Below are positions 10,265 to 52,239 of a stretch of 64,000 bases of DNA, piece by piece. Within the stretch, counting starts at the first letter, position 1. Every line of letters starts with the position of its first letter. The translations under genes and the position numbers were made by a program. The stretch comes from Rhodospirillaceae bacterium (GTDB taxonomy: Bacteria; Pseudomonadota; Alphaproteobacteria; UBA6615), in contig JABIVD010000029.1 in NCBI GenBank assembly GCA_018667335.1, positions 91,381-155,380 of the forward strand. Reading direction: 5' to 3'. Below the pieces are notes generated by a model. It worked only from the letters and a program-made list of their open reading frames with translations, did not search any database and had not been told where the DNA came from.

Positions 10265-10276
10265 TCCTTTAACGCG

Positions 10277-11521: not shown

Positions 11522-11552
11522 GCGCGCGGCCAAGAAGCACGGCAAATCACAC

Positions 11553-22488: not shown

Positions 22489-22540
22489 GCGCCCCCTATA
22501 CCAAGGATAGGGTTTCGCACCAACCCCTATATATAGTGTA

Positions 22541-24433: not shown

Positions 24434-24511
24434 CGCGCGCGCTGTGTAGGCCCTGTTGTCGTACCTGTCAAAGTACCATGCGTATGACTGATCGAAGTCC
24501 CGGAAATCCAA

Positions 24512-24527
24512 TGTTTCACGTGAAACA
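24512..24527. promoter_or_regulatory. parS: parS centromere site 2 (TGTTTCACGTGAAACA) between mnmE and mnmG
   Basis: Second perfect 16-bp parS palindrome (ccaATGTTTCACGTGAAACATTc). Confidence 0.85.
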
Positions 24528-24545
24528 TTCGTCTAGGCAAGACGC

Positions 24546-25889
24546 TTACTTCCCAATACAGAAGTCACGAAAGACGGTGTCGAGTATGTCGTCGATATCG
24601 ACCCGGCCGGTGATCCTGCCAAGCGCCCGGAGCGCGACACGCACGTCCTCGGCGGCGAGTTCCGGGTATGCCGCGTCGGGTACATGCGCCAGCGCCGTGC
24701 TCGCCTCGCCCAACGCATCGCGATGACGCCGGCGGGTCGGCAACGGCGCTTCAGACGCCCCCAGGCGGTCGTGCACCTCGCCGGTCAGTCTGTCGAGCAA
24801 ACCATCGAGCCCGTCGCCGGTCTCCGCAGATACGAGTATCGGCACGATCCCTTCCGGAAGACCCGGCGCGGCGTATTTCCCCCTCAGCAGATCGGCTTTG
24901 TTCACCACCACCAGGCAATCACCGGCGATCAGCGCACGGACCTTCTCCGGCAAGGTACCGTCGGTCGCGTCGAGCACCACGAGCCTCAGGGCCGCATCCT
25001 CAGCCCGTTGCTCGGCACGCCGCACACCCTCGGCCTCAATCGCATCAGAAGCCTCGCGTATCCCCGCCGTATCGGAGAGCGTCACGGCGAAGCCACCGAG
25101 ATTGAGCTGGACCTCGATGACGTCGCGGGTGGTCCCCGCGGTTTCCGACACGATCGCCGCCTCACGTTGCGCCAAGTGATTGATAATACTGGACTTTCCG
25201 ACGTTCGGCGCGCCCAGGATCACGATCGGAAAACCGCTACGTATGTGCTCGCCGCGATCCGCACCTACTATATGTTGTGTGATCTCAGCATTCAGCACTG
25301 CGATGCGTTCCTCGGTCGCGGCCCTCATCCCATCCGGCAACTCCTCGTCGGAGAAGTCGATTTCCGCCTCGGCATGGCCCATCAAGTCGATCAGGCGGGC
25401 CCGCCACCCCTCATAGAGATCGGCCAGCACCCCATCATACTGGCGCAGCGCCAGTCGCCTCTGGGCGTCCGTCTGGGCCGCCACGAGGTCTGCCAGCCCC
25501 TCGGCGGCCGTCAGGTCGAGCTTGCCGTTCTCGAAGGCGCGGCGGGTGAAATCGCCCGGTTCGGCATGCCGCGCCAGGCCGGTCCCGGAAATCGCATCGA
25601 ACACCGCGGCGAGGACCGCGCGACCGCCATGCACATGGAGTTCGGCCACGTCCTCGCCGGTGAAACTGTTCGGGGCCGGAAATCTCAGGACCAACGCCTG
25701 ATCGAGGACTGCGCCGCCCGGCCCGGAAGTCAATTTGTGCAGCGCAACATAACGCGCCTCGGGAAGCACCGGGACGCCAAGTGCGGTCAGGACCGCATCG
25801 GCATTCGGGCCCGAAACACGCACGACCGAGACGCCGGCGAGGCCGGCGCCGCTCGACAGCGCGTAGATGGTGTCTGCAGGCGATACCAC
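24546..25889 (-). CDS. mnmE: tRNA modification GTPase MnmE (TrmE)
   Basis: G1 motif GAPNVGKSS. TTRD. C-terminal CIGK. N-terminus IYALSSGAG. Confidence 0.92.
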   Translation of the reverse strand: MVSPADTIYALSSGAGLAGVSVVRVSGPNADAVLTALGVPVLPEARYVALHKLTSGPGGAVLDQALVLRFPAPNSFTGEDVAELHVHGGRAVLAAVFDAISGTGLARHAEPGDFTRRAFENGKLDLTAAEGLADLVAAQTDAQRRLALRQYDGVLADLYEGWRARLIDLMGHAEAEIDFSDEELPDGMRAATEERIAVLNAEITQHIVGADRGEHIRSGFPIVILGAPNVGKSSIINHLAQREAAIVSETAGTTRDVIEVQLNLGGFAVTLSDTAGIREASDAIEAEGVRRAEQRAEDAALRLVVLDATDGTLPEKVRALIAGDCLVVVNKADLLRGKYAAPGLPEGIVPILVSAETGDGLDGLLDRLTGEVHDRLGASEAPLPTRRRHRDALGEASTALAHVPDAAYPELAAEDVRVALRALGRITGRVDIDDILDTVFRDFCIGK

Positions 25890-25896
25890 GACCGGA

Positions 25897-26160
25897 TTAC
25901 TTCTTGGTGCTGGTCGCGCCCGGATTGGTCATCGACGACCAGAAGGATTTCTGGAACTGCTCCCAGCCCTCACTGCCAGCAGGGCCGCCACCGGGCGCCC
26001 ATGCCGTGAACAGGCTCTGCGGGTCCATCGACGACATCGCCTCCATGGCCTGCTTCTGCCACGCCTCGACCACGGCCTGCTGCGCCGCCGAGATGTCGGG
26101 CAGACCCATGAAGCTGCGGGCCTCCTCGGGGGTGCAATCGATATCTATCGTGACTTTCAT
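25897..26160 (-). CDS. small acidic hypothetical protein (87 aa) immediately upstream of mnmE
   Basis: ORF 7 nt upstream of mnmE on the same strand. No family recognised. Confidence 0.35.
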   Translation of the reverse strand: MKVTIDIDCTPEEARSFMGLPDISAAQQAVVEAWQKQAMEAMSSMDPQSLFTAWAPGGGPAGSEGWEQFQKSFWSSMTNPGATSTKK

Positions 26161-26284
26161 AATCCGGTCCCTCCGCTTGCCTGCAACCCGCCTTGCCTAT
26201 GCGCGAGGCGGGCGCACATTGTAGGTTGCGTTACCTTCCGTCCTCGCCCAAATCCCCGCGTCACAGAGCCAGAGACCGCCACCC

Positions 26285-28302
<2,018 letters not shown>

Positions 28303-28306
<4 letters not shown>

Positions 28307-28794
28307 CCAAGGCGTGCATCCTGGAGTCTCCCGTCGGCCGCATCCGGGTCACGGAATCCAAAGGCGCGGTCACCGAGCTGAGCTGGACGGATGCCCGCGC
28401 CACACCACCATCGACGCAAGTCCTCCGGGACGCCGCCGATCAGCTGGCGGAATACTTCGCCGGGCGGCTGACCGCATTCGTATTGCCCCTCGCACCCGAG
28501 GGCACCGAACATCAGAAGAAGGTCTGGACGGCGATGACCGAGATCCCGTCGGGCGCCCTGCGCACCTATGGCGATCTCGCCCGCGAGATCGGCTCATCGG
28601 CCCGCGCTGTGGGTACCGCCTGCGGCAAGAACCCGATCCCGATCATCGTGCCGTGCCACCGCATCGTGGCGACAGGCGGCGGCATCGGCGGCTATTCCGG
28701 GCGCGGCGGGGTCGAGACCAAGCGCCAACTGCTCAATCTGGAAGGCGTTAATCTCGGCGGCCCCAATCTTGAAGGCGATTTGTTCAGCCGATAG
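28303..28794 (+). CDS. ogt: methylated-DNA--protein-cysteine methyltransferase
   Basis: Active-site IIVPCHRIV. HTH YGDLAREIG. Overlaps the yyaL stop. Confidence 0.85.
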
Positions 28795-28841
28795 GCTCGG
28801 CCCAACACATACATAACGAAGCATTTCTCGGGGGAAGACAC

Positions 28842-29816
28842 ATGGTCCACGCAATCCGTTTTCATGAGGCCGGCGGGCCGGAAGTGATGAAGTGGGAAGA
28901 GGTCGAGGTCGGCGATCCCGGCCCCGGCGAGATCCGGGTCAGGCACACCGCGGCCGGCCTCAACTTCATCGACATCTACCTGCGCTCGGGCGCACGCCCG
29001 GTGCCGATGCCGAACGGGCTGGGCCTCGAGGGTGCCGGAGAGATCATCGCCGTCGGCGACGGGGTGAGCGACCTGGCCGTCGGCGACCGGGTCGGCTATG
29101 CCGACCTGCCGCTGGGGGCCTATTCCGAGGAGCGGGTGATGCCGGCGAAGATCGCCGTCAAACTCCCCGACAACATCTCCGACGAGCAGGCCGCCGGGAT
29201 GATGCTCAAGGGCATGACCGTGCAGTTCCTGATCAAGTCCTGCTTCCCGGTCGCACCGGGCTCGACCGTGCTGTGGCATGCCGCGGCCGGCGGCGTCGGC
29301 CTGATCGCCTGCCAGTGGCTCAACCATCTGGGGGTGACCGTCATCGGCACCGTCGGTTCGGAAGAGAAGGCCGAGCTGGCACGCGCCCATGGCTGCCACC
29401 ACACGATCAATTACAACGAAGAGGACTTCGTCGAGCGGGTGACCGAGATTACCGACGGCGCGGGCGTGTCGGTGGTCTATGACAGCGTCGGCAAGGACAC
29501 GCTCAGGGGTTCGATGAAATGCCTGCAGCGGCGCGGCTACCTGATCACCTTCGGCAACGCATCGGGTGCGCCCGAGCCGGTGGCGCCGGGCGAGCTGTCG
29601 GAGCATGGCTCGATCTACCTGGCCCGGCCGATGCTGTTCGACTTCACCGCCGACCGCGACGAGCTGCTGGCCTGCGCCGGCGACCTGTTCGACGTCGTGT
29701 CATCGGGTGCCGTGAAGATCGAGATCAACCAGCGCTACCCCCTGTCGGAGACGGTCCAGGCGCATATCGACCTGGTCGGCCGCAAGACGACAGGCTCGAC
29801 GATCTTGATGGCGTAG
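28842..29816 (+). CDS. qor: NADPH:quinone oxidoreductase (zinc-free MDR family)
   Basis: GPEVMKWEEVEVGDPGPGEIRVRHTAAGLNFIDIY. Nucleotide-binding AAGGVGLIACQWL. Confidence 0.85.
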   Translation: MVHAIRFHEAGGPEVMKWEEVEVGDPGPGEIRVRHTAAGLNFIDIYLRSGARPVPMPNGLGLEGAGEIIAVGDGVSDLAVGDRVGYADLPLGAYSEERVMPAKIAVKLPDNISDEQAAGMMLKGMTVQFLIKSCFPVAPGSTVLWHAAAGGVGLIACQWLNHLGVTVIGTVGSEEKAELARAHGCHHTINYNEEDFVERVTEITDGAGVSVVYDSVGKDTLRGSMKCLQRRGYLITFGNASGAPEPVAPGELSEHGSIYLARPMLFDFTADRDELLACAGDLFDVVSSGAVKIEINQRYPLSETVQAHIDLVGRKTTGSTILMA

Positions 29817-29826
29817 GGCCGCCGAT

Positions 29827-29853
29827 CGTCATACGCGGACTTGATCCGCGTCT
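29827..29853. repeat. hairpin repeat type B (GTCATACGCGGACTTGATCCGCGTCTC)
   Basis: Stem GCGCGGA/TCCGCGC. Family also at 45919, 46333, 47454. Confidence 0.7.
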
Positions 29854-29868
29854 CTCACAAAGACCGAG

Positions 29869-29899
29869 ACAAGATGCCCGGATCAAGTCCGGGCATGAC
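29869..29899. repeat. hairpin repeat type A (AGATGCCCGGATCAAGTCCGGGCATGACG)
   Basis: Stem GCCCGGA/TCCGGGC. Family also at 45856, 46270, 46376, 47392. Confidence 0.7.
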
Positions 29900-29920
29900 G
29901 ATTGTTGAAAGTGTGGAGTC

Positions 29921-30021
29921 TTACCCCTCATCCTGATGAGGGCCGCAAGGCTCATCTCGAAGGATAGGGTGATCGCTTCATGCTTCGAGACGGTGCTGCG
30001 CGCCTCCTCAGCATGAGGGGT
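29921..30021. repeat. about 100-bp element bounded by imperfect terminal inverted repeats (TACCCCTCATCCTGA ... TCAGCATGAGGGGTA), internal hairpins; MITE-like or structured RNA
   Basis: The left end is itself a hairpin (cctcatc-ct-gatgagg). Internal IR catctcgaag/cttcgagacg. Sits between convergent qor and rho. Confidence 0.4.
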
Positions 30022-30030
30022 AGCGGGAAT

Positions 30031-30060
30031 GCAAAAGGGCGGGTTTGAAACCCGCCCCTA
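30031..30060 (-). terminator. rho 3' terminator hairpin (GGGCGGGTTTCAAACCCGCCC + TTTTG on the minus-strand transcript)
   Basis: 7-bp GC stem followed by a T-run on the rho strand. An identical 27-bp copy is at 46472-46499. Confidence 0.6.
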
Positions 30061-30084
30061 CGCTATTCGATCTGGCTTCGATGC

Positions 30085-31341
30085 TTACTGGTTCATGGTG
30101 TCGTAGAAGTCGTCGTTGTTCTTGGTCGACTTCATCTTGCCGAGCAGGAACTCCATACCGTCCACGACCCCCATGGGGCTGAGGATGCGGCGCAGGACCC
30201 ACATCTTCGACAAGGCGTCCTTGTCGACCAGCAGCTCTTCTTTGCGCGTGCCCGACTTGGTGATGTCGATCGACGGCCAGACCCGCTTGTCCGACAGCTT
30301 CCGGTCGAGGACGATTTCCGAGTTACCGGTGCCCTTGAACTCTTCGAAGATGACCTCGTCCATACGCGAGCCGGTCTCGATCAGCGCGGTCGAGATGATC
30401 GTCAGCGAGCCGCCTTCTTCAATGTTACGGGCCGCGCCGAAGAAACGCTTCGGACGCTGCAGGGCGTTGGCGTCCACGCCGCCGGTCAGCACCTTGCCCG
30501 AGGACGGGACGACGGTGTTGTAGGCGCGGGCGAGGCGGGTGATCGAATCCAGCAGGATGACCACGTCGTGCTTATGCTCGACCAGGCGCTTGGCCTTGGA
30601 GATCACCATCTCGGCGACCTGCACATGGCGTGTGGCCGGCTCATCGAACGTCGAGGAGATCACCTCACCGCGCACCGTGCGCTGCATGTCGGTCACTTCC
30701 TCGGGCCGCTCGTCGATCAGCAAGACGATCAGATAGACCTCGGGATGATTGGCCATGATCGCCTTGGCGATGTTCTGCATCATCACGGTCTTGCCCGTGC
30801 GCGGCGGTGCGACCAGCAGCGCGCGCTGGCCCATGCCGAGCGGTGCCACCATGTCGATGACGCGGGTCGAGGGATCCTTCATCTCGGGATCATCGATCTC
30901 CAGCTTGATCTTCCGGTCGGGATAGAGCGGGGTCAGGTTGTCGAAGTTGACGCGGTGACGGGTGTGATCCACATCGTCGAAATTGACCTGGGCGACCTTG
31001 ACCAGCGCGAAGTAACGCTCGCCATCCTTGGGAGAGCGGATTTCGCCCTCGACCGTGTCGCCCGTGCGCAACGCGAAGCGGCGCACCTGGCTGGGTGAGA
31101 CATAGATATCGTCGGGACCCGGCAGAAAGTTCGATTCCGGCGAGCGCAGGAAGCCGAAGCCGTCCTGTAGCACTTCCAGAACACCGATGCCCGAGATCGG
31201 CACCTCGTCCTCTGCCAGTTCCTTGAGGATCGCGAACATCATGTCCTGGGTGCGAAGGTTGCTCGCCCCCTCGATCTCGAGTTCCTCGGCAAAGCTGAGG
31301 AGATCAGCCGCGGATTTGTCTTTCAGGTCTTGGAGTTTCAT
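30085..31341 (-). CDS. rho: transcription termination factor Rho
   Basis: N-terminus [41 protein letters not shown]. Walker A and RNA-binding domain. ORF track start 31386; ATG 31341 has a GGAAG SD; alternative ATG at 31350. Confidence 0.93.
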
Positions 31342-31603
31342 TGCTTCCATGGGGAGGCCAATTCTGTTTGGAAACCTACGCGCCACAACGGCTGGGAACC
31401 GCGTTTTCGGGGGCGTTGGTGATTGTCAGCGGAAGTTCGTGGTCGCCGACGGGAAACGCCGGAAGAAAACGACTTATGCGGAAGGGAGTGCGTGCGATGA
31501 GGACTGTCTTGTGCGCGCGCCGTTATTACGCACTTAGTGAGCGTGCCGCGTCAAGTCAATCCTCGCGACGGAAATGCTGCGGCAAAAACCCGGGGCCAAA
31601 AAC

Positions 31604-32053
31604 CTAGAACGGACGGGCGATAATCATCACCACGATCACGATCATCAGAACCGTCGGCACCTCGTTGGCGAGCCGGTAGGTCTTCGCGGGCCGGGTGTTT
31701 GCGTCGGCGGCGAAATCCTTCATCCATTTCGCGAACACATGATGGGCGACTGTCATCGCCGTCACCGCGGCCAGCTTGATCCAGATCCAGCCCGAACCCC
31801 AGTCCACGATCCCGGGCGTGCCCAGCATCAGGCCACCAAAAATGAACGCCGCGATCATCGCCGGGTTCATGATCGCGCGCAGCAGGCGCCGCTCCATGAT
31901 CTTGAAGGTCTCGGACTTGTCCGACCCCACCTCCGCGTCGGCGTGATAGACGAACAGGCGCGGCAGATAGAGCATCCCGGCCATCCAGGAGATCACCGCG
32001 ATCACATGGAGCGACTTGAACCAGGGATAGGCCGCAATCAGGAAATCACCCAT
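31604..32053 (-). CDS. hemJ: protoporphyrinogen IX oxidase HemJ (UPF0093)
   Basis: WFKSLHVIAVISWMAGMLYLPRLFVYHA is the conserved HemJ N-terminal motif. 4 TM. Adjacent to hemH-hemE. Confidence 0.8.
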   Translation of the reverse strand: MGDFLIAAYPWFKSLHVIAVISWMAGMLYLPRLFVYHADAEVGSDKSETFKIMERRLLRAIMNPAMIAAFIFGGLMLGTPGIVDWGSGWIWIKLAAVTAMTVAHHVFAKWMKDFAADANTRPAKTYRLANEVPTVLMIVIVVMIIARPF

Positions 32054-32059
32054 GGTTCA

Positions 32060-33124
32060 TCATCCGGTTTGTACCGCAGCTGGCATAGGGCATTTCGACC
32101 ATTCACCAGAACAGACGCGACCGCCGTTGCCGCTGCAGATATCGCAGCCCGCCGCGATGTTGCCGCGCACCAGATCGGCGAGCCCGGCGATGAACTTCGG
32201 GGCGGTGCCCACGGTCTGCACGCGAATATATTCAGGCACGCCCGCCCCCTCGGCCAGCGCACGATACTCGATATCGAGCTCGACCAGCGTCTCGGAATGC
32301 TCCGACACAAATGCGATGGGCACGATAATCACAGATTTCCCGTCCGCCCCGGCACGGGCGATTTCATCATCGGTCGACGGCCCGATCCATTCCAGCGGAC
32401 CGACCCGGCTCTGATAACAGCACAACCAGTCGAGCTCCTGTCCCAGGCTTTCCATCGCTGGATTGTTCATCACCGCGGCTGCCGTCTGTTCGACTTGGGA
32501 CTGGTACGGGTCGCCGCCCTCGACGATCTGCTTGGGGAGTCCATGGGCAGAGAACAAAATTCTTACATCTTTGGTTACACGTGTGCCCGCTTCCAGCGCG
32601 TCGGCCAGCAGATCCGTCACCGCACCGATGAAGCCCGAATCGGTCGGGTAACAGCACAGCGCCGTGACGGGAATGTCGAGCTTGCGTTTGCGTGCCACGC
32701 GCTCCCAGATCCGCATCATCGACCCGACCGTGGTGGTCGAGAATTGCGGATAAAGCGGCAGCAAGACGATGCGCTCAGGCGCACTCGCGATCACCTCGTC
32801 CATGACCGCATCGCACATGGGATGCCAGTAGCGCATGGCGACGAAGCATTTGAAATCTTCCCCGCCGCCCGTGTTCAGTACGGCCTCAAGCGCATCCGCC
32901 TGGGCGCGCGTGTTGGCGAGCAGGGGCGAACCGCCGCCGATATGGGCGTAGATCTCCTGCGCAATGGGCGCCCGGCGGCGCGAGATCAATTGTGCCAGAG
33001 CCCAGCGGATCGGTGCCGGCGCGCCGATGATCATCGGGTCGTTGAACAGGTTGAACAGGAACGGCCGGACATCATCGGGCCCGTCAGGACCGCCAAGATT
33101 GTAGAGGACGACGGCGGTTGTCAT
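32060..33124 (-). CDS. hemH: ferrochelatase with Cys-rich C-terminal extension (putative [2Fe-2S])
   Basis: MTTAVVLYNLGGPDGPDDVRPFLFNLFNDP N-terminal signature. C-terminal CDICSGNGGRVCSGEWSKC. ATG at 33122-33124. Confidence 0.9.
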   Translation of the reverse strand: MTTAVVLYNLGGPDGPDDVRPFLFNLFNDPMIIGAPAPIRWALAQLISRRRAPIAQEIYAHIGGGSPLLANTRAQADALEAVLNTGGGEDFKCFVAMRYWHPMCDAVMDEVIASAPERIVLLPLYPQFSTTTVGSMMRIWERVARKRKLDIPVTALCCYPTDSGFIGAVTDLLADALEAGTRVTKDVRILFSAHGLPKQIVEGGDPYQSQVEQTAAAVMNNPAMESLGQELDWLCCYQSRVGPLEWIGPSTDDEIARAGADGKSVIIVPIAFVSEHSETLVELDIEYRALAEGAGVPEYIRVQTVGTAPKFIAGLADLVRGNIAAGCDICSGNGGRVCSGEWSKCPMPAAVQTG

Positions 33125-33134
33125 GGCTTGTCGG

Positions 33135-34184
33135 TCATCCGGCGGGCGTCCATTCACGAACGATCTCGGCGAGCCGCTCGACATGTTCGAACGGCGTATC
33201 CTTGTTGATGCCGTGGGCCAGGTTGAACACGAACGGGCCCCCACCGAGCGCGTCCAGGATTTCCCGCGCGGCGCGCTCCATCTCATCACCGCCGACCATC
33301 AGATAGGCCGGATCGAGATTGCCCTGCACGGGACAGATCGGCTGAATCCTGCTGGCGGCTTCGCCGGCGGTCATCGATGCATCGAGGCCGACGGCATCGA
33401 TCCCGGTCGCGCGGATATATCCCTCGAGGCGCTCACCGATCCCGCGGGCAAAACCGATGATCGGGATATCGGGCGCGCGCGCCTTCACCCCCGCCACGAT
33501 GCGCGCGGTCGGCGAGATCACCCACGCATCGAAGTCGTTTGCCGGCACGGCACCCGCCCAGGTGTCGAACAGCTGCAGCGCCTGGGCGCCAGCCTCGACC
33601 TGGGCCACGAGATAGGCGGTCGTGGATTCCACCAGGATATCCATCAGCGATGCGAAATCCGCGCGGTCACGAACGGCCCAGCTTTTGACCGCGTTGAAGT
33701 CGCGGCTCGAGCCCCCCTCGACCATGTAGGTCGCGACCGTCCACGGCGCGCCGGCAAACCCGATCAGCGCCACATCATCGGGAAGTTCTTCGCGGACCCG
33801 CGCGACCGTCTCGAACACCGGTGCCAGATGACCGAGGGTTTTCCCGGGATCGAGCTTCGCCAGATCCGCGCCGTTCGTCACCGGGGTGAGGACCGGCCCG
33901 GTCCCCTCGACAAACCCGACCTCCTGGCCAATCGCATCGGGGATCACCAGAATATCCGAGAACAGGATCGCCGCGTCGGGCCGGAACCGATCGATCGGTT
34001 GCAGGGTTACCCTGGCGGCGCGTTCCGGGGTGTAGCAGAGATCCAGAAAACCGGAGGCCTGGGCCCGAATTTCCCGGTATTCCGGGAGATATCGGCCGGC
34101 CTGGCGCATGAACCAGAATGGTGGGCGGCCACCGGTTTTACTGGCCGGATTGCTGGACAGGGCATCGAGGAACAAGTTGGACAC
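33135..34184 (-). CDS. hemE: uroporphyrinogen decarboxylase
   Basis: PPFWFMRQAGRYLPEYREIR N-terminal signature. 349 aa. Confidence 0.92.
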   Translation of the reverse strand: MSNLFLDALSSNPASKTGGRPPFWFMRQAGRYLPEYREIRAQASGFLDLCYTPERAARVTLQPIDRFRPDAAILFSDILVIPDAIGQEVGFVEGTGPVLTPVTNGADLAKLDPGKTLGHLAPVFETVARVREELPDDVALIGFAGAPWTVATYMVEGGSSRDFNAVKSWAVRDRADFASLMDILVESTTAYLVAQVEAGAQALQLFDTWAGAVPANDFDAWVISPTARIVAGVKARAPDIPIIGFARGIGERLEGYIRATGIDAVGLDASMTAGEAASRIQPICPVQGNLDPAYLMVGGDEMERAAREILDALGGGPFVFNLAHGINKDTPFEHVERLAEIVREWTPAG

Positions 34185-34659
34185 GGTTGGAAAACTGACG
34201 TTTGGGTTGGCGGTCTGCGGTCGGAAAGACAGGTTTCTGACGGGGCTGAATGAGGCCTGACTATGCCGATCAGGTTGTCCCTGCGCATCCTAAATAATAG
34301 TAGTTGAACGTAGTGAAATTTGAACTGTAGTTGTAGATGTGCGGTGAATCCGAGGGATAAGTCTTCGTTCACGAATTCGTACAGAACGGCGACCAGCTGT
34401 GCACGAACGAACGGACGCTTTGTTCGTAAATCTCCTAGACCGTTGATCCGCAATATATTCGTGCCGGGCCGGCTTGTGGATCACCTTGGTCCAGCGACTG
34501 GATGGCTGGTTCCGCCAGCGGATGCATACCGGCTGTTGGAAACTTTGTCCTCCGTGGGATGACAGGGGGGTGTACGAACGGCATAAGGTTGATGAAATAT
34601 TTCGCGCAGGGAGAAGTCGCTACTTATCCCCGTTGTCATTGTATTCGCTCCCAGCCCAG
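34185..34659. other. oriC: candidate chromosomal replication origin (oriC; hemE | ori | DUF299 synteny as in Caulobacter Cori)
   Basis: 475-bp non-coding gap. DnaA-box-like TGTGGATCA (34475-34483, reverse complement of the Caulobacter G-box TGATCCACA) and TGATCCGCA (34444-34452). TTATCC cores at 34355-34360 (reverse complement) and 34624-34629. 50-bp AT-rich stretch at 34291-34340. Confidence 0.55.
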
Positions 34660-35523
34660 ATGGTGCCGCTGATGGCCGAAACCGAAGACGTCTTCCACCT
34701 TCACCTGGTCTCGGATTCCACCGGTGAGACGATCCGGTCGGTCTCGCGGGCCTGCCTGGCCCAGTTCTCGGAAACGCAGTCGGTCGAGCATTTCTGGCCG
34801 ATGGCGCGGACACCGAAGGCGATGGAGTTGGTGCTCGAGGAGATCCACGAGAACCCCGGCCCGGTGATCTTCACCCTGGTGAACGACAATTTGTGTGAGC
34901 AGCTTGTTCGGGGCTGCCGGTTGCGCAAGGTGCCGTGTATTTCCGTGCTCGATCCGGTCATTGCCGCGGTCGGCAACTATCTGGGCCAGCAGCCGACCCA
35001 CCGCATCGGCGGGCAGCATGAGCTCGACGAGGCCTATTTCGCGCGGATCGAGGCGATGGACTGGTCGCTCACCCATGATGACGGGCAGCGGACCGAGGAG
35101 CTGAACGGCTCGGATATCGTGCTGGTTGGGGTGTCGCGCACCTCGAAGACGCCGACCTGCCTGTATCTGGCGAACCGGGGGATCAAGGCCGCAAATGTGC
35201 CCTACGTGCCCGGTGTGCCGCTCCCCGATATTCTCGAACAACTGACCAATCCGCTGGTGATCGGGTTGACCAACGATCCAAAGCGCCTGGTTGAGCTGCG
35301 CCGGGCGCGGCTGACGTCGCTGCACGAGCACCAGGAGACCGATTATGTCGACCCCGAGGTCGTGCGCGCGGAAATCACCCAGGCGCGGCGCTATTTTGCC
35401 CGCAACAACTGGCCCGTCATCGACGTGACCCGGCGTTCGATCGAGGAAACGTCCGCCGCGATCATGAATGTCTACAATCGCCGGCTCGAAGAGGCCGAAA
35501 AGAGCGATGATGCCGCCGGCTGA
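34660..35523 (+). CDS. pyruvate,phosphate dikinase regulatory protein-like kinase/pyrophosphorylase (DUF299; RP001 homologue)
   Basis: MVPLMAETEDVFHLHLVSDSTGET. P-loop GVSRTSKTPTCLYLA. ORF track begins at 34474; ATG at 34660 (alternative 34672). Confidence 0.85.
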   Translation: MVPLMAETEDVFHLHLVSDSTGETIRSVSRACLAQFSETQSVEHFWPMARTPKAMELVLEEIHENPGPVIFTLVNDNLCEQLVRGCRLRKVPCISVLDPVIAAVGNYLGQQPTHRIGGQHELDEAYFARIEAMDWSLTHDDGQRTEELNGSDIVLVGVSRTSKTPTCLYLANRGIKAANVPYVPGVPLPDILEQLTNPLVIGLTNDPKRLVELRRARLTSLHEHQETDYVDPEVVRAEITQARRYFARNNWPVIDVTRRSIEETSAAIMNVYNRRLEEAEKSDDAAG

Positions 35524-45855: not shown

Positions 45856-45885
45856 GAGATGCCCGGATCAAGTCCGGGCATGACG
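45856..45885. repeat. hairpin repeat type A
   Basis: GAGATGCCCGGATCAAGTCCGGGCATGACG. Confidence 0.75.
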
Positions 45886-45918
45886 CAAGTGGGGTTAGTG
45901 GTGGACCAATACAAACCC

Positions 45919-45947
45919 GTCATGCGCGCACTTGATCCGCGCATCTC
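45919..45947. repeat. hairpin repeat type B
   Basis: GTCATGCGCGCACTTGATCCGCGCATCTC. Confidence 0.75.
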
Positions 45948-45951
45948 TGTC

Positions 45952-46239
45952 TCAGACCAGCGTGTCGTAGAGATCGGTCCAATCAGGATTGGTTGTTTCG
46001 ATAAGGCCTGTCTTCCAGGAACGCGACCAGTGTTTGATGGTTTTCTCACGCTGGATGGCATCACGGATGTCGTTGTGGGTCTCGACATAGACGAGGCGTT
46101 TCAGGCGGTAGCGTTGCGTGAACCCTTCGACGACGCCCTCGCGGTGTTCCCAGGCGCGACGCGCAATATCTGAGGTGACGCCCACATAGAGCGTCCCGTC
46201 GCGTCTGTTGGTGACAATGTAGACCCAGCCGCCCGACAT
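45952..46239 (-). CDS. GIY-YIG nuclease-family small protein (UPF0213-like)
   Basis: GWVYIVTNRRDGTLYVGVTSDIARRAWEHREG GIY-YIG motif. 95 aa. Flanked on both sides by A/B hairpin repeat pairs. Confidence 0.8.
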   Translation of the reverse strand: MSGGWVYIVTNRRDGTLYVGVTSDIARRAWEHREGVVEGFTQRYRLKRLVYVETHNDIRDAIQREKTIKHWSRSWKTGLIETTNPDWTDLYDTLV

Positions 46240-46269
46240 GGAATCGGTCCTTTCGGGCAGACCTTAGCC

Positions 46270-46299
46270 GAGATGCCCGGGTCAAGTCCGGGCATGACG
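46270..46299. repeat. hairpin repeat type A
   Basis: GAGATGCCCGGGTCAAGTCCGGGCATGACG. Confidence 0.75.
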
Positions 46300-46332
46300 C
46301 AGGTGGTTGGGTGCCGTGTTTTCCCTAGTACC

Positions 46333-46361
46333 GTCATGCGCGGACTTGATCCGCGCATCTC
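46333..46361. repeat. hairpin repeat type B
   Basis: GTCATGCGCGGACTTGATCCGCGCATCTC. Confidence 0.75.
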
Positions 46362-46375
46362 GCCGACACCGAGAC

Positions 46376-46405
46376 GAGATACCCGGGTCGAGCCCGGGTA
46401 TGACG
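46376..46405. repeat. hairpin repeat type A variant
   Basis: GAGATACCCGGGTCGAGCCCGGGTATGACG, with compensatory stem changes. Confidence 0.65.
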
Positions 46406-46471
46406 CACTAAAAAAGAGCGGGAGTGGCGGAGTGTGTTTGGTCGGTTGATTCCTGCCCCCGAAAAGCAGAA

Positions 46472-47504: not shown

Positions 47505-48815
47505 CTACAGAATGAACTTCGACAGGTCGGCGTTCTTGGTCAGCTCCTCGAGCCGATCCCGGACCATGGCCTCGTCGATCTCGATCTCCTCGCCGTCCCG
47601 GTCGGGCGCGGAGAAGCTGATCTCTTCGAGCAGGCGTTCGAGCACCGTGTGCAGGCGCCGCGCGCCGATATTCTCCACCGACTGATTGATCACCGCCGAC
47701 AGCTCCGCGAGCGTATCGATCGCGCCTTCGGTGAAGTTGAGGGTGACGCCTTCCGTGCCCATCAGCGCCACATACTGGCGGATCAGGCTGTTCTCCGGCT
47801 CGCGCAGGATGCGGCCAAAATCACTCTCGGTCAGCGCGCTCAGCTCGACCCGGATCGGCAGCCGGCCCTGGAGTTCGGGCAGCAGGTCCGAGGGCTTGGC
47901 CAGGTGGAACGCGCCCGAGGCGATGAACAGGATATGGTCGGTCTTCACCGCGCCATGCTTGGTGACGACGGTCGTGCCCTCGATCAGCGGCAGCAGGTCG
48001 CGCTGCACGCCCTCGCGGCTGACGTCGGCGCCCTGCCGGTCTGAGCGGGCCGTGATCTTGTCGATCTCATCGAGGAAGACGATGCCGTCATCCTCGACGG
48101 ATTTGAGCGCCTCGCGGACCAGTTTCTCATCGTCGAGCAGCTTGTCGGCCTCGTCGGCGATCAGCACCTCGTAGCTTTCCAAAACGGTCATCTTGCGGGG
48201 CTTGGTCTGTTGGCCGAGCGCCTTTCCCAGCATGTCGTTCAGGTTGATCATGCCCATCTGGCCGCCGGGCATGCCCGGGATGTCCATGGTCGGCAAGCCG
48301 CCGGCGCCGGAATCGGCCACCTGGATCTCGATCTCCTTGTCGTCGAGCTCCCCGGCGCGCAGTTTCTCGCGGAACGAGGCGCGGGTGGATTCGCCTGAAT
48401 TCTCTCCCACCAGCGCGTCCAGCACGCGGGCCTCGGCGTTGAACTCTGCCTGGGCGACGACCTCCTTGCGGCGGACCTCGCGGGTCATCAGGATCGACTG
48501 TTCGACCAGGTCGCGGATGATCGATTCCACGTCGCGGCCGACATAGCCGACCTCGGTGAATTTGGTCGCCTCGATCTTGATGAAGGGCGCGTTGGCGAGC
48601 CGCGCCAGGCGGCGCGAAATCTCGGTCTTGCCGACGCCGGTCGGGCCGATCATCAGGATGTTCTTGGGCAATACCTCTTCACGCATATCGCCGGTCAGCT
48701 GCTGGCGGCGCCAGCGGTTGCGCAAGGCGATGGCGACGGCGCGCTTGGCGTCGTCCTGGCCGATGATGAAACGGTCGAGCTCGGAAACGATCTCGCGCGG
48801 GGAAAAATTGCTCAT
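47505..48815 (-). CDS. hslU: ATP-dependent protease ATPase subunit HslU
   Basis: [27 protein letters not shown]. Walker [11 protein letters not shown]. Confidence 0.95.
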
Positions 48816-49372
48816 AGGCTTTCGATCGTCACGTTGGTGTTGGTGTAGACGCAGATGTCGGCGGCGATGGCCATCGCCTTCTCGGCGACCTGGCGGGGGG
48901 TGAGGTCTTCCTGGTCGACCAGGGCGCGGGCCGCGGCCAGGGCATAGTTGCCGCCGGACCCGATGGCGATGATGCCGTCGTCGGGCTCCAGCACGTCGCC
49001 GGTGCCGGTCAGGACCAGGGAGGTGTCCTTGCTGGCGACCGCCATCATGGCTTCGAGGCGGCGCAGATACCGGTCGGTGCGCCAGTCCTTGGCGAGCTCC
49101 ACGCAGGCGCGGGTGAGCTGACCGGGATATTGTTCGAGTTTCGTCTCGAGCCGCTCGAACAGGGTCATCGCGTCGGCGGTCGCACCGGCGAAACCGGCGA
49201 TGACGCTGCCGTCGCCCAGGGGGCGGACCTTGCGCGCGGTGGCCTTGATCACGGTCTGTCCCAGGGTGACCTGTCCATCACCCGCGATCACCACATCGTT
49301 GCCCTTGCGCACGGACAGGATCGTGGTGCCGTGCCAGGACGGGATGCGGTCGTCGGATTGGTATGTGTTCAT
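48812..49372 (-). CDS. hslV: ATP-dependent protease subunit HslV
   Basis: [23 protein letters not shown] with N-terminal Thr active site. Overlaps the hslU start. Confidence 0.93.
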
Positions 49373-49466
49373 GGTAGCGGTCCGCGATCAGTCAGGGGGT
49401 GGTCAGTCGGGGTGGCCCTGAGTCCTGACGCATCCGGGCGACAGGCGCAATGGCCGCCGCCCTTCC

Positions 49467-49494
49467 ATGTGGGGCCGCAGGCGTGGGGATCAAG
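49467..49494 (-). promoter_or_regulatory. sigma-32 (RpoH)-type heat-shock promoter for hslVU
   Basis: On the minus strand: CTTGAT (49494-49489), N14, CCCCACAT (49474-49467), against the consensus CTTGAA-N13-15-CCCCATnT. About 95 nt upstream of the hslV ATG. Confidence 0.55.
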
Positions 49495-49542
49495 CCCTGC
49501 CGGGGTGCGCGATGGGCCGTCGCGCGCGGCCCAAGTCCGTGC

Positions 49543-50505
49543 TCAGGCGTGGATTTCGAGGAGAAAGGAGAAGGGCGTGTTGTAGCCGCCGGCCTCGATC
49601 TCGTTCGCGCCAATGTGAAGCGGGATCACATTGCGCGGTTCGTCGAGGCCGATCCGCTCGCCGTTGACCACGGTGCCGAGCTGGCTGCCGGCGTCGCGGA
49701 TCATCAGGCCTGGCCGCCCGAGCTCGATCAGGAAATGGTTCCGCGAGAGGTTGTAGGGCCGTTCGTCGGGAAACTGGAGGACGATGTCGGTCCGCGGGGT
49801 CTGCTCACCGCGCTTGGGCTTGCGGCCGACGCCGAACGGCGTCTCGTTGATCTTGACGCCGCGCCGGGGCATGCCGCTGCGGGTCGCGTCGCTGGCCGGC
49901 TTGAGCCAGATCGTGGACCAGCTGCCCATCTCGGCGACATCGCCGGCATGTGTGGCCTTGCGTGTGCGCTTTCCGGTGATGGAGACGACATTGGAGTCGG
50001 CTTCGCGCAGGAGCTGATCGAGGGGTGATTCGGTGTCTGAATCTACGCGTGACACCATTCCTGCGTCAGTTCCTGATTCAATTCCTGATTCAATTCCTGA
50101 TTCTGCGTCTGGCACCAGCGTCAGGCCTGCGAGCAACTGGGTCGCCGCCCTTCGCACCATGTCCGGGTGTCGCGCCAACTCCGCCGCGACGGTGCCCCGA
50201 TCCACCATGACGGCCTCGACAGGCCCGGCGGCGATGGCGCTCAGATCCTGTCGTCCGCCGAACAGCAGGCTCGCTGCGCCGATCACGTCGCCCTGGCGTG
50301 CGTCCCCCAGCAGAGTGCCGGTTGCGTTGCGCAGCTCGACGCGGCCCGTGACAATCACGAAACCCGCGTCCGGGTCCTCGCCGGCGCGGAGCAGAAAATC
50401 CTGATCGGAAAAGACGCGGGTGCGTCCGGGTAAGGTGTTCATGAGCAAGCAAGTAATGAAGTGGACGAATTGACGTATGATGCCGAAGTTCGCCTGATCC
50501 GCCAA
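49543..50505 (-). CDS. cyclic-nucleotide-binding domain + FHA domain fusion protein
   Basis: N-terminal cNMP-binding fold (FLLRAGEDPDAGFVIVTGRVEL...GDVIGAASLL). ESGIESGIESG linker. C-terminal FHA signature (YNLSRNHFLIELGRPGLMIRDAGSQLGTVVNGERI). TTG start at 50505 per ORF track; alternative ATG at 50442. Confidence 0.7.
   Translation of the reverse strand: MADQANFGIIRQFVHFITCLLMNTLPGRTRVFSDQDFLLRAGEDPDAGFVIVTGRVELRNATGTLLGDARQGDVIGAASLLFGGRQDLSAIAAGPVEAVMVDRGTVAAELARHPDMVRRAATQLLAGLTLVPDAESGIESGIESGTDAGMVSRVDSDTESPLDQLLREADSNVVSITGKRTRKATHAGDVAEMGSWSTIWLKPASDATRSGMPRRGVKINETPFGVGRKPKRGEQTPRTDIVLQFPDERPYNLSRNHFLIELGRPGLMIRDAGSQLGTVVNGERIGLDEPRNVIPLHIGANEIEAGGYNTPFSFLLEIHA
50069..50104. repeat. 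12-bp tandem repeat x3 (attcctgattca) encoding the ESGI linker
   Basis: Seen in sequence; in-frame, within the coding region. Confidence 0.5.
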
Positions 50506-50610
50506 TCCGATTTACGCGCATTGGTATGTGGTGCGGGATGGCGCCGGGCGGCCGCGCCTGCTATCTAGGCGCCGCATTCGGCCCAAAACGGGCCTGCAGG
50601 AGAAAAAACC

Positions 50611-51252
50611 ATGAGTGTTCAGGAGCTTCCGGGGCGCAAGGACGGCGAAGGACGTACCGCCGAAGTCGTGCGCACGACGAAGGAAACCGACATCTCCGTC
50701 GCGGTAAATCTCGACGGCACCGGTGCCTATGATGTGGAAACGGGCATCGGCTTCCTCGACCACATGCTCGAGCAGCTCTCGCGGCACAGCCTGATCGACC
50801 TGACGGTGCGCGCGAAGGGTGACCTGCACATCGATTTCCACCACACGACCGAGGACAGCGGCTATGCCGTCGGCGAGGCGATCAGCAAGGCGCTGGGCGA
50901 CCGGCGCGGCATCCGCCGCTATGGCGACGCGCTGGTGCCGATGGACGAGACCCTGACCCGGGTCGCGCTGGATGCGTCCAACCGCCCCCACCTCGTGTGG
51001 AAGGTGCCGTTCACGCGCCCGAAACTGGGCGATATGGACACCGAGCTGTTCCAGGAATGGTACCGGGCATTCGCACAGTCCGCCGGGCTGACGCTGCATG
51101 TCGAGACGCTGTATGGCGAGAACAATCATCATATGATTGAGTCCTGCTACAAGGGCCTCGCCCGCGCCTTGCGCATTGCCGTGGAGATCGATCCGCGTCG
51201 CGCCGACGATGTGCCGTCGACCAAGGGTGTTCTGGGCGGTTCCATAGATTAG
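50611..51252 (+). CDS. hisB: imidazoleglycerol-phosphate dehydratase
   Basis: [11 protein letters not shown] and [14 protein letters not shown] motifs. AGGAG SD. Confidence 0.92.
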
Positions 51253-51342
51253 GTTTGGGATTAAGCTGGAATTAAGCTGGGACCAAGCCAAGACCAAACA
51301 GGTCGCTGGTTGGCCTCGTAGCCCTACGGCAAGTTGTACGCG

Positions 51343-52239
51343 ATGAATGAAACAGGGACAGAGACCGCGCGGCGGTCCGAATCCACGCCCGGCGCACTGC
51401 CGACGGCGGTGAGCGCGGCCGCCTATGGCCCGCTCGTCCGCTTCCGCAAATGGATGGTCGACGGCATGGTTGCGAAACGTGCGCGGCGTGCCGAGGCGGT
51501 GCTGCGGGCGAATGCACCCCTGTGGGACCTGATGACCCGGGCCGCGGCCGGGACCGCGGTGACCGGCGCGTCGTTCTCGGACTACCTCACCCTGTACGAA
51601 CAGGTGCGGGCGTTCCGGCCGCGCGAGATCCTCGAATGCGGGACCGGCATCTCGACCGTCGTGCTGGCCTACGCGCTGATGGAAAACGCCCGAGAAGACG
51701 GCAGTGAACATGGCGGCCAGCCGGGCCGGGTGACCTCGATGGAGGACGACAAATCCTGGTTCGAGGTGGCGGGCACGCGCCTGCCCGACGAGGTCCGCGA
51801 GGTGGTGGACCTGATCCACAGCCCCAAGCGGGACGGGTTCTACAAATGCTTCCGGGGGGTGCAGTACGAGTCCCTGCCCGACCGGCCGTATGACTTTGTC
51901 TTCTCCGATGGCCCCGACCGCCACTCGCCGGTCAACGGCGACAAGCTGTTCAATCTCGACCTGATCCATGTGGTCGCCCGGTCCGACCAGCCGGTGCGCG
52001 CCGTCGTCGACAATCACTATCTGACGTTCTACATCCTGCAGAAGGTGTTCGGCGTCGCGCTCGCGCGCTACAGCGTTAGCCACAAGCTGATGTTCGTCGG
52101 CCCGGTGACCCGGCACGACGTGCGCTTCCTGCGGAAGGAGTCCTTCCTGCCGGACCTGCGCCTGTTCTCGACGACGGAGCTGAAGCTGCGGATGGCCCGT
52201 GAAGATCAGGTTCAAAAAGACCGGGCGGCGAGGACGTAG
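51343..52239 (+). CDS. class I SAM-dependent methyltransferase-like protein (inserted in his operon)
   Basis: Motif I ILECGTGISTVVLAYAL. Post-I acidic DFVFSDGP. ORF track begins at TTG 51334. Confidence 0.5.
   Translation: MNETGTETARRSESTPGALPTAVSAAAYGPLVRFRKWMVDGMVAKRARRAEAVLRANAPLWDLMTRAAAGTAVTGASFSDYLTLYEQVRAFRPREILECGTGISTVVLAYALMENAREDGSEHGGQPGRVTSMEDDKSWFEVAGTRLPDEVREVVDLIHSPKRDGFYKCFRGVQYESLPDRPYDFVFSDGPDRHSPVNGDKLFNLDLIHVVARSDQPVRAVVDNHYLTFYILQKVFGVALARYSVSHKLMFVGPVTRHDVRFLRKESFLPDLRLFSTTELKLRMAREDQVQKDRAART

Follow-up and report, generated by a model that had tools for sequence, protein, structure and literature searches.

In CRP/FNR-type modules, such as E. coli CRP, M. tuberculosis Crp, GlxR and Clr, a cyclic nucleotide-binding (CNB) fold is joined, beyond its C-helix, to a winged helix-turn-helix (HTH) that binds DNA. 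Recognition of the nucleotide depends on a phosphate-binding cassette, G-E ... R-[ST]-A, which contacts the ribose 2'-OH and the cyclic phosphate. Pycsar-type effectors, activated by cNMPs, fuse a CNB domain to a TIR or transmembrane effector and adjoin a PycC cyclase. In single-FHA regulators (GarA/OdhI, FhaA (Rv0020c), Rv1747 FHA-1, EmbR and Bdellovibrio DgcB), the partner of the FHA domain can be an HTH, an ABC transporter or a GGDEF domain. The CNB domain of the trypanosomatid PKA regulatory subunit has been re-specified and binds nucleosides rather than cAMP. In the trypanosome protein, cAMP binding is abolished when a polar residue takes the place of the cassette Arg and, elsewhere in the cassette, Ala is changed to a Glu that clashes with the phosphate (PMC10959531).

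We analysed a stretch of 64,000 nucleotides (the window) in which one gene joins a CNB fold to an FHA domain. We think it rather likely that its product is a soluble signalling adaptor of ~299 aa, combining a degenerate CNB barrel with an intact FHA reader and inserted in this lineage beside hslVU. Its parts are known; the variant that they form is uncharacterised. The genes of the locus are:

47505-48815, minus strand: hslU (Pfam AAA_2 and AAA), downstream of the CNB-FHA gene on the same strand
48812-49372, minus strand: hslV (Pfam Proteasome, 7e-24), downstream of the CNB-FHA gene on the same strand
49543-50442, minus strand: most likely coding part of the CNB-FHA gene, 299 aa plus stop, judged from homologue starts and dN/dS
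50443-50505, minus strand: 5' extension of the 320-codon open reading frame (ORF), probably non-coding (5' UTR and promoter)
50611-51252, plus strand: hisB, imidazoleglycerol-phosphate dehydratase (Pfam IGPD, 4.8e-65), the divergent neighbour
51334-52239, plus strand: methyltransferase-like gene (weak Methyltransf_24 match)

The initial annotation described a 320-aa protein and gave the range 49467-50505. A minus-strand ORF of 320 codons, starting with TTG, does exist at 49543..50505, but its likely product is shorter, and 49467-49542 is the non-coding promoter region of hslV. Most homologues (34 of 43) span no more than 93% of the ORF, their aligned start being its Met22, and the TTG (50505-50503) opens a conserved, -35-like TTGGCG hexamer; therefore the product is probably 299 aa long, from ATG 50442. 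In the alignment, the 5' extension is conserved among the closest relatives only. The gene itself is real and conserved. Both domains are under purifying selection, with dN/dS values against loci L001 and L002 of 0.09-0.10 for CNB and 0.14-0.16 for FHA; distant pairs, in which dS is saturated and the values unreliable, were left out.

The protein and its coding sequence are divided as follows:

50107-50442, minus strand: CNB-fold beta-barrel and long C-helix, residues 1-112 of the 299-aa protein
50230-50292, minus strand: degenerate phosphate-binding cassette GDVIGAASLLFGGRQDLSAIA, residues 51-71
49939-50106, minus strand: disordered linker of variable length, acidic/Ser/Gly in composition, residues 113-168
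50057-50103, no strand assigned: 12-bp tandem repeat (3.9 copies) encoding (ESGI)n (Tandem Repeats Finder, score 73)
49546-49938, minus strand: FHA domain with N-terminal extension, residues 169-299

Both domain calls of the initial annotation were confirmed by Pfam HMM searches above the gathering scores: cNMP_binding (PF00027) matches aa 30-112 (E=6e-10, 39.4 bits, cut-off 27.5) and FHA (PF00498) aa 226-290 (E=6.7e-8, 33.3 bits, cut-off 20.7). The N-terminal domain is an eight-stranded beta-barrel with C-terminal helices, and CNB profile matches to PKG, PKA-R and CRP reach 1e-17 or less. A separate FHA-only structure model was made because the FHA region found no PDB relative as a single-sequence query. 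This model (pLDDT 89.4, pTM 0.84) predicts an eleven-stranded beta-sandwich, and all 50 matches listed by Foldseek against the PDB are FHA domains, led by Rv1747 FHA-1, FhaA, GarA, OdhI and EmbR. Across 38 sequences G206, R207, R234, H236, T257 and N260 never vary, and at least 90% share S233. Of the 138 aligned family sequences, 107 carry the signature G-R...S-R-x-H...T...N, among them all 12 members of the clade described below. The alignments thus indicate that the phosphothreonine-binding residues (Gly-Arg, Ser-x-x-His, Asn-Gly) are intact.

Between the domains, the linker is predicted with pLDDT <50, is mostly missing from 256-aa relatives in the alignment, and shows just 38-62% identity, close relatives included. 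Tandem Repeats Finder and translation bear out that a 12-bp repeat encodes it in part (unit ATTCCTGATTCA, 3.9 copies; peptide ...AESGIESGIESGT...), and at the same position relatives have differing sequences. In place of the HTH of a CRP/FNR protein, the C-helix is followed by this linker and then by the FHA beta-sandwich, and Pfam gave no HTH family match in the protein. Relatives are labelled as 'cyclic nucleotide-binding domain-containing protein', 'FHA domain-containing protein' or 'CRP/FNR family transcriptional regulator'. The last label is misleading because there is no C-terminal HTH; these relatives have no DNA-binding domain and should be relabelled.

An exhaustive search returned 319 representatives at E<=1e-30. 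About 130 of the best 150 of these 319 are full-length matches in a single stretch, 240-300 aa long, over profile positions ~7-257, and 351 further clusters were found in addition. The pairing, held by the initial annotation to be uncommon, is thus uncommon only in part: it defines a sizeable recurrent family, in which ~130 clusters share the same 240-300-aa architecture, with members known almost only from metagenomes. The other part of that claim, that no function has been assigned, stands. Full-text literature searches turned up nothing published on CNB-FHA proteins of bacteria, and neither an NCBIfam nor a PADLOC model covers the architecture; membership in a defence system was rejected, as PADLOC gave no match.

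By its sequence, our protein belongs to this uncharacterised two-domain family, most members of which have a canonical cAMP/cGMP pocket, and it resembles them in the colinear full-length match, the length of 240-300 aa and the FHA signature. In a neighbour-joining tree it falls in a clade of 12 of the 138 sequences that holds every confirmed member located between hisB and hslV. This clade differs from the rest of the family in being the only one found in that slot and the only one lacking the cassette Arg throughout, and in its own subclade the linker is longer and repeat-bearing.

The cassette of our protein reads G-A ... Q-D-L-S-A. Relative to canonical family members, the Glu is replaced by Ala56, the Arg by Gln65 and the Ser/Thr by Asp66. 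The cassette Arg is present in 102 of the 138 aligned family sequences and in none of the 12 clade members, where it has become His or Gln; in the inner branch that includes our protein, the Glu is lost as well. Because of these losses, sensing of cAMP or cGMP, the cNMP input assumed in the initial annotation, is doubtful for this gene.

It could still be argued that the protein is a phosphothreonine adaptor gated by cAMP or cGMP, in which the nucleotide would move the C-helix and switch the availability of the FHA domain, so coupling second-messenger and Ser/Thr-kinase signalling. We regard this as unlikely for our protein. The wider family would fit it well, as Glu and Arg occur together in 84 of 138 aligned sequences, and a canonical-pocket member (L046) has as its neighbour a gene for a dCache plus class III nucleotide cyclase, with a homologous gene adjoining another canonical member (L028). 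Strong purifying selection on the barrel of our protein also means that it does something specific, which could still be ligand binding, and R64, one position before the canonical Arg site, might act as a partial substitute. However, R64 is found in the immediate subclade, other clade members having Ala or Pro, while at least 90% of the A2 alignment set has Gln65. Moreover, both the ribose 2'-OH and the phosphate contacts are lost, the residue following Gln65 is acidic, and a scan of 59 window ORFs and of the flanks of the syntenic loci (up to ~8 kb) gave no nucleotide cyclase. The same scan found no Hanks-type kinase and no PP2C phosphatase. The Ser/Thr-kinase link made in the initial annotation is therefore not supported by the neighbourhood, and it is the FHA pocket that suggests it.

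The elements that may control transcription of the locus are:

49420-49454, minus strand: conserved block GCCATTGCGCC...GATGCGNCAGGACTC within the 5' leader of hslV, shared by 7 of 8 aligned loci
49467-49494, minus strand: sigma-32 (RpoH)-type promoter of hslVU, CTTGAT-N14-CCCCACAT, 95 nt before the hslV ATG
50477-50505, minus strand: putative own promoter of the CNB-FHA gene, TTGGCG (50505-50500), N17, CATCAT (50482-50477)
50538-50566, plus strand: putative hisB promoter, ATGGCG, N17, CTATCT

The Pfam matches of its neighbours confirm that the CNB-FHA gene lies between hslVU and hisB. The order hisB, CNB-FHA gene, hslV, hslU recurs at L001-L003, L007, L008, L010-L012 and L014, whereas hisB and hslV are directly adjacent in two Rhodospirillales relatives, Varunaivibrio sulfuroxidans (CP119676.1) and the MAG GCA_022449545.1. 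The gene is therefore a lineage-specific insertion, so that 'inserted', as the initial annotation put it, holds for the lineage and not for this genome in particular. Comparison of gene order shows that an ancestor of the lineage, Rhodospirillales-like, received the gene into the divergent hisB|hslVU spacer, upstream of a sigma-32 promoter already in place. A signature of horizontal transfer was sought and rejected; the GC content is typical of the genome. By tblastn, the methyltransferase-like gene is present at 10 of 10 fetched loci with the CNB-FHA gene and at neither of the 2 loci that lack it. Across the loci whose CNB-FHA proteins were compared, HisB is 82-98% and HslV 81-97% identical, with identity in the CNB region going down to 19%. 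The lineage consists of marine alphaproteobacteria.

The RpoH-like promoter reported for hslVU was also confirmed. CTTGATCCCCACGCCTGCGGCCCCACAT is the sole match to CTTGA-N14-17-CCCCANNT in 64 kb (0.07 expected by chance), and in eight loci both hexamers are conserved and the spacer varies. The E. coli-type sigma-32 consensus is CTTGAA-N13-15-CCCCATNT; the hslVU promoter matches it and has nothing unusual. As a similar motif precedes hslV in two relatives without the CNB-FHA gene (L095 and L096), we assign the promoter to hslVU, and it says nothing about regulation of the fusion gene. The gene's own promoter is called putative because its hexamers, both inside conserved blocks of a seven-locus alignment, fell below the threshold of a strict sigma-70 consensus scan. 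For hisB, the putative promoter comes from GCGCCATCC and CTAGATAGCAG, which are conserved blocks of the same alignment when the hisB strand is read. For the conserved block in the hslV leader, which is absent from L095 and L096, several readings were rejected: an RNA element (no Rfam match at gathering scores or E<=1, no conserved structure), a conserved upstream ORF (the ATG of the block is ATA in L011), and, by eye, sigma-54, ECF and CIRCE sites.

A second alternative, to which we give little credence, is that the protein is a lineage-specific partner of HslUV, co-transcribed with hslVU, that either regulates the protease or serves as an adaptor delivering phosphorylated substrates to HslU. 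In all confirmed clade members the gene lies immediately 5' of hslVU in the same orientation, even where identity per domain has fallen to 19-44%; no terminator-like site was found between it and hslV, and the conserved block in the hslV leader is specific to the clade. In addition, a distant canonical member, P0101 (L013), is encoded directly after an Anbu-type proteasome-homologue operon. However, the whole 15-kb neighbourhood is syntenic in the clade, so adjacency to hslVU is not specific evidence; hslVU retains its ancestral sigma-32 promoter, and a relative with an 84%-identical HslV lacks the CNB-FHA gene. Among 80 wider-family metagenomic loci searched by tblastn, none had a match to HslV, HslU, Anbu, transglutaminase, Alpha-E or ATP-grasp, and these include L016, a 53%-identical relative of P0101 whose 3 kb of upstream sequence holds no Anbu-operon genes. 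We thus rejected a family-wide tie to proteasome-fold peptidases; adjacency to their genes is seen only in our clade (HslV) and at the single locus L013 (Anbu). The adjacency expected of an Anbu- or HslV-associated accessory protein does not recur across the family, and when 186 flanking ORFs were clustered no partner stood out as dominant (the largest group spans 6 loci and has no Pfam match). The link to HslVU is one of synteny, not of demonstrated joint work with the protease. Very improbable, in our opinion, is a broader version, in which a re-specified barrel would sense some ligand that is not a cyclic nucleotide, the FHA domain would recruit phosphothreonine-marked proteins to HslUV or regulate it, and a promoter belonging to the gene itself would drive its co-transcription with hslVU. 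If true, a proteasome homologue of bacteria would here have a phospho-degron adaptor, and the one-off Anbu adjacency would echo the link.

It is scarcely credible, and largely refuted, that the ORF is decaying or spurious, its cNMP-like part a relic, its repeat-containing frame non-functional and its Pfam matches a sign of ancestry only: the degenerate cassette, an evolution much faster than that of the neighbours HisB and HslV and the absence of an evident Shine-Dalgarno sequence upstream of ATG 50442 would agree with it, but the frame is unbroken in more than 40 homologue clusters, dN/dS among close relatives is ~0.1-0.16 in both domains, the invariant functional residues are kept and the structure models are confident.

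Returning to the signalling adaptor that we favour, we infer its mechanism from the domain anatomy. The CNB barrel most likely would no longer sense cAMP or cGMP and could serve as a dimerisation or scaffold module, or as a sensor of another ligand; by analogy with CRP, dimerisation may occur through the C-helix. A Ser/Thr kinase encoded in another part of the genome would give rise to a phosphothreonine-bearing partner, and this the FHA domain would bind. The gene would be transcribed from its own housekeeping-type promoter and, as no terminator follows, read-through into hslVU is possible. Of the initial annotation, the domains, linker, slot and promoter are retained; the cNMP input is doubtful, the rarity only partly right, and the kinase link suggested by the FHA pocket.

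If the anatomy is read correctly, a cyclic-nucleotide-receptor fold has stayed under strong constraint after losing its nucleotide-contacting residues and is coupled to a domain that reads phosphothreonine. Neither the heat-shock promoter nor the position of the gene is out of the ordinary. The wider family comprises hundreds of clusters with no studied member, and is a plausible meeting point of second-messenger and Ser/Thr-kinase signalling in environmental Alphaproteobacteria. To learn what such barrels sense, its canonical branches can naturally be compared with the degenerate ones.

Set beside the described systems, our protein differs from CRP/FNR-type modules in having a linker and an FHA domain where these have the HTH, and in missing the cassette Glu and Arg. 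It shows neither the effector fusions nor the adjoining cyclase of Pycsar-type proteins. In comparison with the trypanosomatid PKA regulatory subunit, its acidic residue lies at another cassette position and the ribose-binding Glu is lost as well; the likeness does not imply a nucleoside ligand. With respect to single-FHA regulators, sequence identity is just 15-24%, inspection of the alignment showed no conserved phosphorylatable N-terminal tail like that of GarA/OdhI, and no adjacent kinase gene was found; the partner domain is here a CNB fold. Our FHA domain nevertheless shares the fold of these regulators in the structure comparison (target-normalised TM up to 0.80) and keeps their phosphothreonine-contacting Arg, Ser, His and Asn.

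The initial annotation described a protein joining an N-terminal cyclic-nucleotide-binding (CNB) fold to a C-terminal FHA domain by a repetitive linker, and this anatomy was read correctly. Both Pfam models score above their curated cut-offs: cNMP_binding reaches 39.4 bits (cut-off 27.5, E=6e-10) and FHA 33.3 bits (cut-off 20.7, E=6.7e-8). Tandem Repeats Finder recovers the linker repeat as a 12-bp unit present 3.9 times (50057-50103), encoding ESGIESGIESG. The RpoH-like promoter proposed before hslVU is CTTGATCCCCACGCCTGCGGCCCCACAT (minus strand, 49467-49494); nothing else in the 64 kb of the window fits CTTGA-N14-17-CCCCANNT, for which 0.07 matches are expected. Domains, repeat and unique motif together confirm the observation. 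The genes concerned are:

49543-50505, minus strand: CNB-FHA open reading frame as called, 320 codons from TTG
48812-49372, minus strand: hslV, downstream of the CNB-FHA frame
47505-48815, minus strand: hslU, downstream of the CNB-FHA frame
50611-51252, divergent from the CNB-FHA frame: hisB

A word-index search gave 43 homologue clusters, 34 of which cover at most 93% of the frame in alignments starting at its Met22; conservation of the N-terminal extension is limited to the closest relatives. When seven loci are aligned over the hisB-proximal spacer, the TTG "start" proves to be the opening half of a TTGGCG hexamer, which is conserved like the CATCAT 17 bp downstream of it. As a strict sigma-70 scan gave no match for this putative promoter, we can only infer that the two hexamers serve the gene itself as -35 and -10 elements. 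If so, its coding region would be 49543-50442, giving the 299-aa protein whose residue numbers are used here. The GC content of the gene is unremarkable.

An AlphaFold model of the whole protein (alignment of 38 sequences, mean pLDDT 79) contains a confident beta-barrel (residues 8-81), helices (82-115, the longest being 93-115), a disordered stretch (about 110-162, pLDDT <50) and a confident beta-sandwich from about residue 170 to the C-terminus. The linker is hypervariable in sequence and length and is mostly missing in 256-aa relatives. Thus, the ESGI repeat is a strain-level expansion within a disordered tether and not a functional motif. Since structure searches with the whole protein returned CNB domains only among the matches listed, the C-terminal 140 residues were modelled separately (pLDDT 89.4, pTM 0.84). 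All 50 Foldseek PDB matches listed for this second model are FHA domains, headed by Rv1747 FHA-1, FhaA, GarA, OdhI, CT664 and EmbR. The residues by which FHA domains contact phosphothreonine are kept in the window protein: the 38 aligned sequences show no variation at Gly206-Arg207, Arg234, His236, Thr257 and Asn260, and Ser233 is conserved in at least 90% of them.

The order hisB, CNB-FHA, hslV, hslU recurs in nine loci of relatives (L001-L003, L007, L008, L010, L011, L012 and L014), even where the CNB-FHA protein retains only 19-44% per-domain identity to that of the window; identities across the same loci are 82-98% for HisB, 81-97% for HslV and 81-94% for full-length HslU. The closest named HslV relatives belong to Rhodospirillaceae and Rhodospirillales MAGs, Varunaivibrio sulfuroxidans (81%) and Ferrovibrio (77%). 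Two relatives, V. sulfuroxidans (CP119676.1) and MAG GCA_022449545.1 (HslV 84% identical), whose loci are L095 and L096, show otherwise similar synteny, but here hisB directly adjoins hslV, the two being divergent. This arrangement bears out the insertion between hslVU and hisB claimed initially: the gene is a lineage-specific insertion in an ancestral divergent hisB|hslV spacer. The sigma-32-type -35 and -10 hexamers are conserved across eight loci, while the spacer sequence between them varies. As similar motifs precede hslV in both loci without the gene (CTTGAA-N15-CCCAAAAT in L096, CTTGAC-N16-CCTACAT in L095), the promoter is ancestral to hslVU, and the insertion landed upstream of it. No terminator-like site was found between the CNB-FHA gene and hslV, and read-through into hslV is possible.

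Just downstream of the sigma-32 -10 element, the 5' leader of hslV contains some 35 nt (GCCATTGCGCC...GATGCGNCAGGACTC, 49420-49454, minus strand) that are conserved in seven of eight CNB-FHA-bearing loci and missing from L095 and L096. This block matches nothing in Rfam, shows no conserved RNA structure and does not form a conserved upstream ORF. On the other side, between hisB and a DUF2628 gene, a 301-aa methyltransferase-like gene (51334-52239, plus strand; weak Methyltransf_24 match, below cut-off) was found by tblastn in all ten fetched CNB-FHA loci and in neither of the two related loci lacking CNB-FHA. Its product is 66-92% conserved, far above the CNB-FHA protein, and the two genes may have been acquired jointly or may cooperate.

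Other features of the window were also recorded. A 95-aa GIY-YIG ORF (45952-46239, minus strand, within 45856-46412) has on either side a composite palindromic repeat some 92 bp long (45856-45947 and 46270-46361), with a third, partial copy at 46376-46412; a GIY-YIG gene occupies the same position in L003 but not in L002, and the whole looks like a small mobile cassette. A second CNB-fold protein (182 aa, 2922-3470, plus strand; cNMP_binding 61.6 bits) is encoded beside cytochrome c' and cytochrome c genes (next to 592-2106). Its C-terminal tail is short and HTH-like and its cassette, AE...YHCDAVA, departs from the canonical form; it resembles a regulator of the Crp/Fnr type more than a cAMP receptor. 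The region 19987-34184 carries parB, parA, mnmG/gidA, mnmE, rho, hemH and hemE, a set that we take to be typical of a chromosome-origin region. A 643-aa JmjC-domain protein followed by a 712-aa TPR and sulfotransferase protein (9590-13691, plus strand) makes a combination that is unusual on bacterial chromosomes. Searches of the whole 64 kb found no rRNA, tRNA or Rfam elements.

An exhaustive HMMER search with the family profile against 1.84 billion representatives returned 319 proteins at E<=1e-30, and about 130 of the 150 best are full-length, single-stretch matches of 240-300 aa; searching again with a profile of the canonical branch gave a list of 351 clusters. All matches come from metagenomes or MAGs and bear generic names. 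The domain pairing, initially called uncommon, is therefore recurrent rather than rare. Its description as having no assigned function holds, since we found no study of this architecture in the literature and no NCBIfam or PADLOC model that covers it. Some relatives are labelled [quoted passage not shown] by source auto-annotation. In these the FHA domain replaces the DNA-binding domain, and the label cannot be right because CNB-FHA proteins have no HTH; the labelling of many members appears to be systematic misannotation. With the window protein we aligned five homologues from the first search and 132 representatives, 138 sequences in all. The phosphate-binding cassette Arg is present in 102, cassette Glu and Arg together in 84, and the full FHA signature in 107; these counts suggest a true cNMP receptor as the ancestral state. 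Homologous genes adjoin canonical-pocket members in two metagenomic loci, L046 (8880-10946) and L028 (4413-5714). The L046 copy, the one scanned, encodes a dCache plus class III adenylate/guanylate cyclase, in keeping with genuine cNMP sensing in the family's main branch.

The protein could be thought a partner of HslUV, and one canonical-pocket member, P0101, is indeed encoded 68 bp downstream of an Anbu-type operon (L013, 1946-6783; ATP-grasp, Alpha-E, transglutaminase and a 256-aa proteasome homologue). However, the neighbourhood of about 15 kb is wholly syntenic within the window's clade, so adjacency to hslVU carries little specific weight. Moreover, tblastn with HslV, HslU, Anbu and Anbu-operon proteins found none of these genes in 80 metagenomic wider-family loci, among them L016, whose member is 53% identical to P0101 and for which 3 kb of sequence upstream was covered. 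This rejects the family-wide link to proteasome-fold peptidases prompted by the P0101 locus, and a partnership with HslUV is of low probability. Neighbour clustering of wider-family loci gave no recurrent partner.

The members confirmed in the hisB|hslVU slot can all be enclosed, in a neighbour-joining tree, by a clade of no more than 12 of the 138 sequences. Each of these retains the FHA signature, and none has the cassette Arg, His or Gln standing there. The window cassette, GDVIGAASLLFGGRQDLSAIA, aligns without gaps to its canonical counterpart in P0043, GQLVGEMGVVEKQPRSATVRA, and to PKG and PKA. Compared with these, the ribose-binding Glu is replaced by Ala, the phosphate-binding Arg by Gln and the following Ser/Thr by Asp, and the nucleotide pocket is thus degenerate. 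A caveat is R64, one position before the canonical Arg site in the window's immediate subclade (Ala/Pro in other clade members). Against the close relatives L001 and L002, dN/dS is 0.09-0.10 for the CNB domain, 0.14-0.16 for FHA and 0.13-0.19 for the linker, where identity is just 59-62%. Selection among these relatives is clearly purifying; the gene is therefore functional, and its altered barrel is not decaying.

The proposed link from a cNMP signal to Ser/Thr-kinase signalling needs revising: the FHA pocket residues are kept, but the cNMP pocket is degenerate and a cNMP input is doubtful. No Hanks-type kinase, PP2C phosphatase or nucleotide cyclase was found by Pfam in the 59 window ORFs scanned or in the precomputed annotations of syntenic loci. 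The gene after hslU belongs to the "Cyclase" family PF04199, which we take to be kynurenine-formamidase-like, as opposed to a nucleotide cyclase. Just one Thr-kinase-like protein was found, a PF03618 kinase/pyrophosphorylase (34474-35523), of a family that regulates PEP synthase or PPDK.

In summary, the gene was inserted in one Rhodospirillales-like lineage beside an ordinary heat-shock operon. Its product is most likely an adaptor that reads phosphothreonine, with a CRP-like barrel turned to some use other than binding cAMP/cGMP. As an uncharacterised variant assembled from known parts it is not surprising, but it merits a note for researchers in CNB or FHA signalling. There is a precedent for such a change of pocket: in trypanosomatid PKA-R, the cassette Arg is replaced by a polar residue and an Ala-to-Glu change elsewhere in the cassette clashes with the phosphate; cAMP binding is abolished and the pocket is re-specified for nucleosides (PMC10959531). 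We do not extend a nucleoside ligand to the window protein, since its changed cassette positions differ from those of PKA-R.
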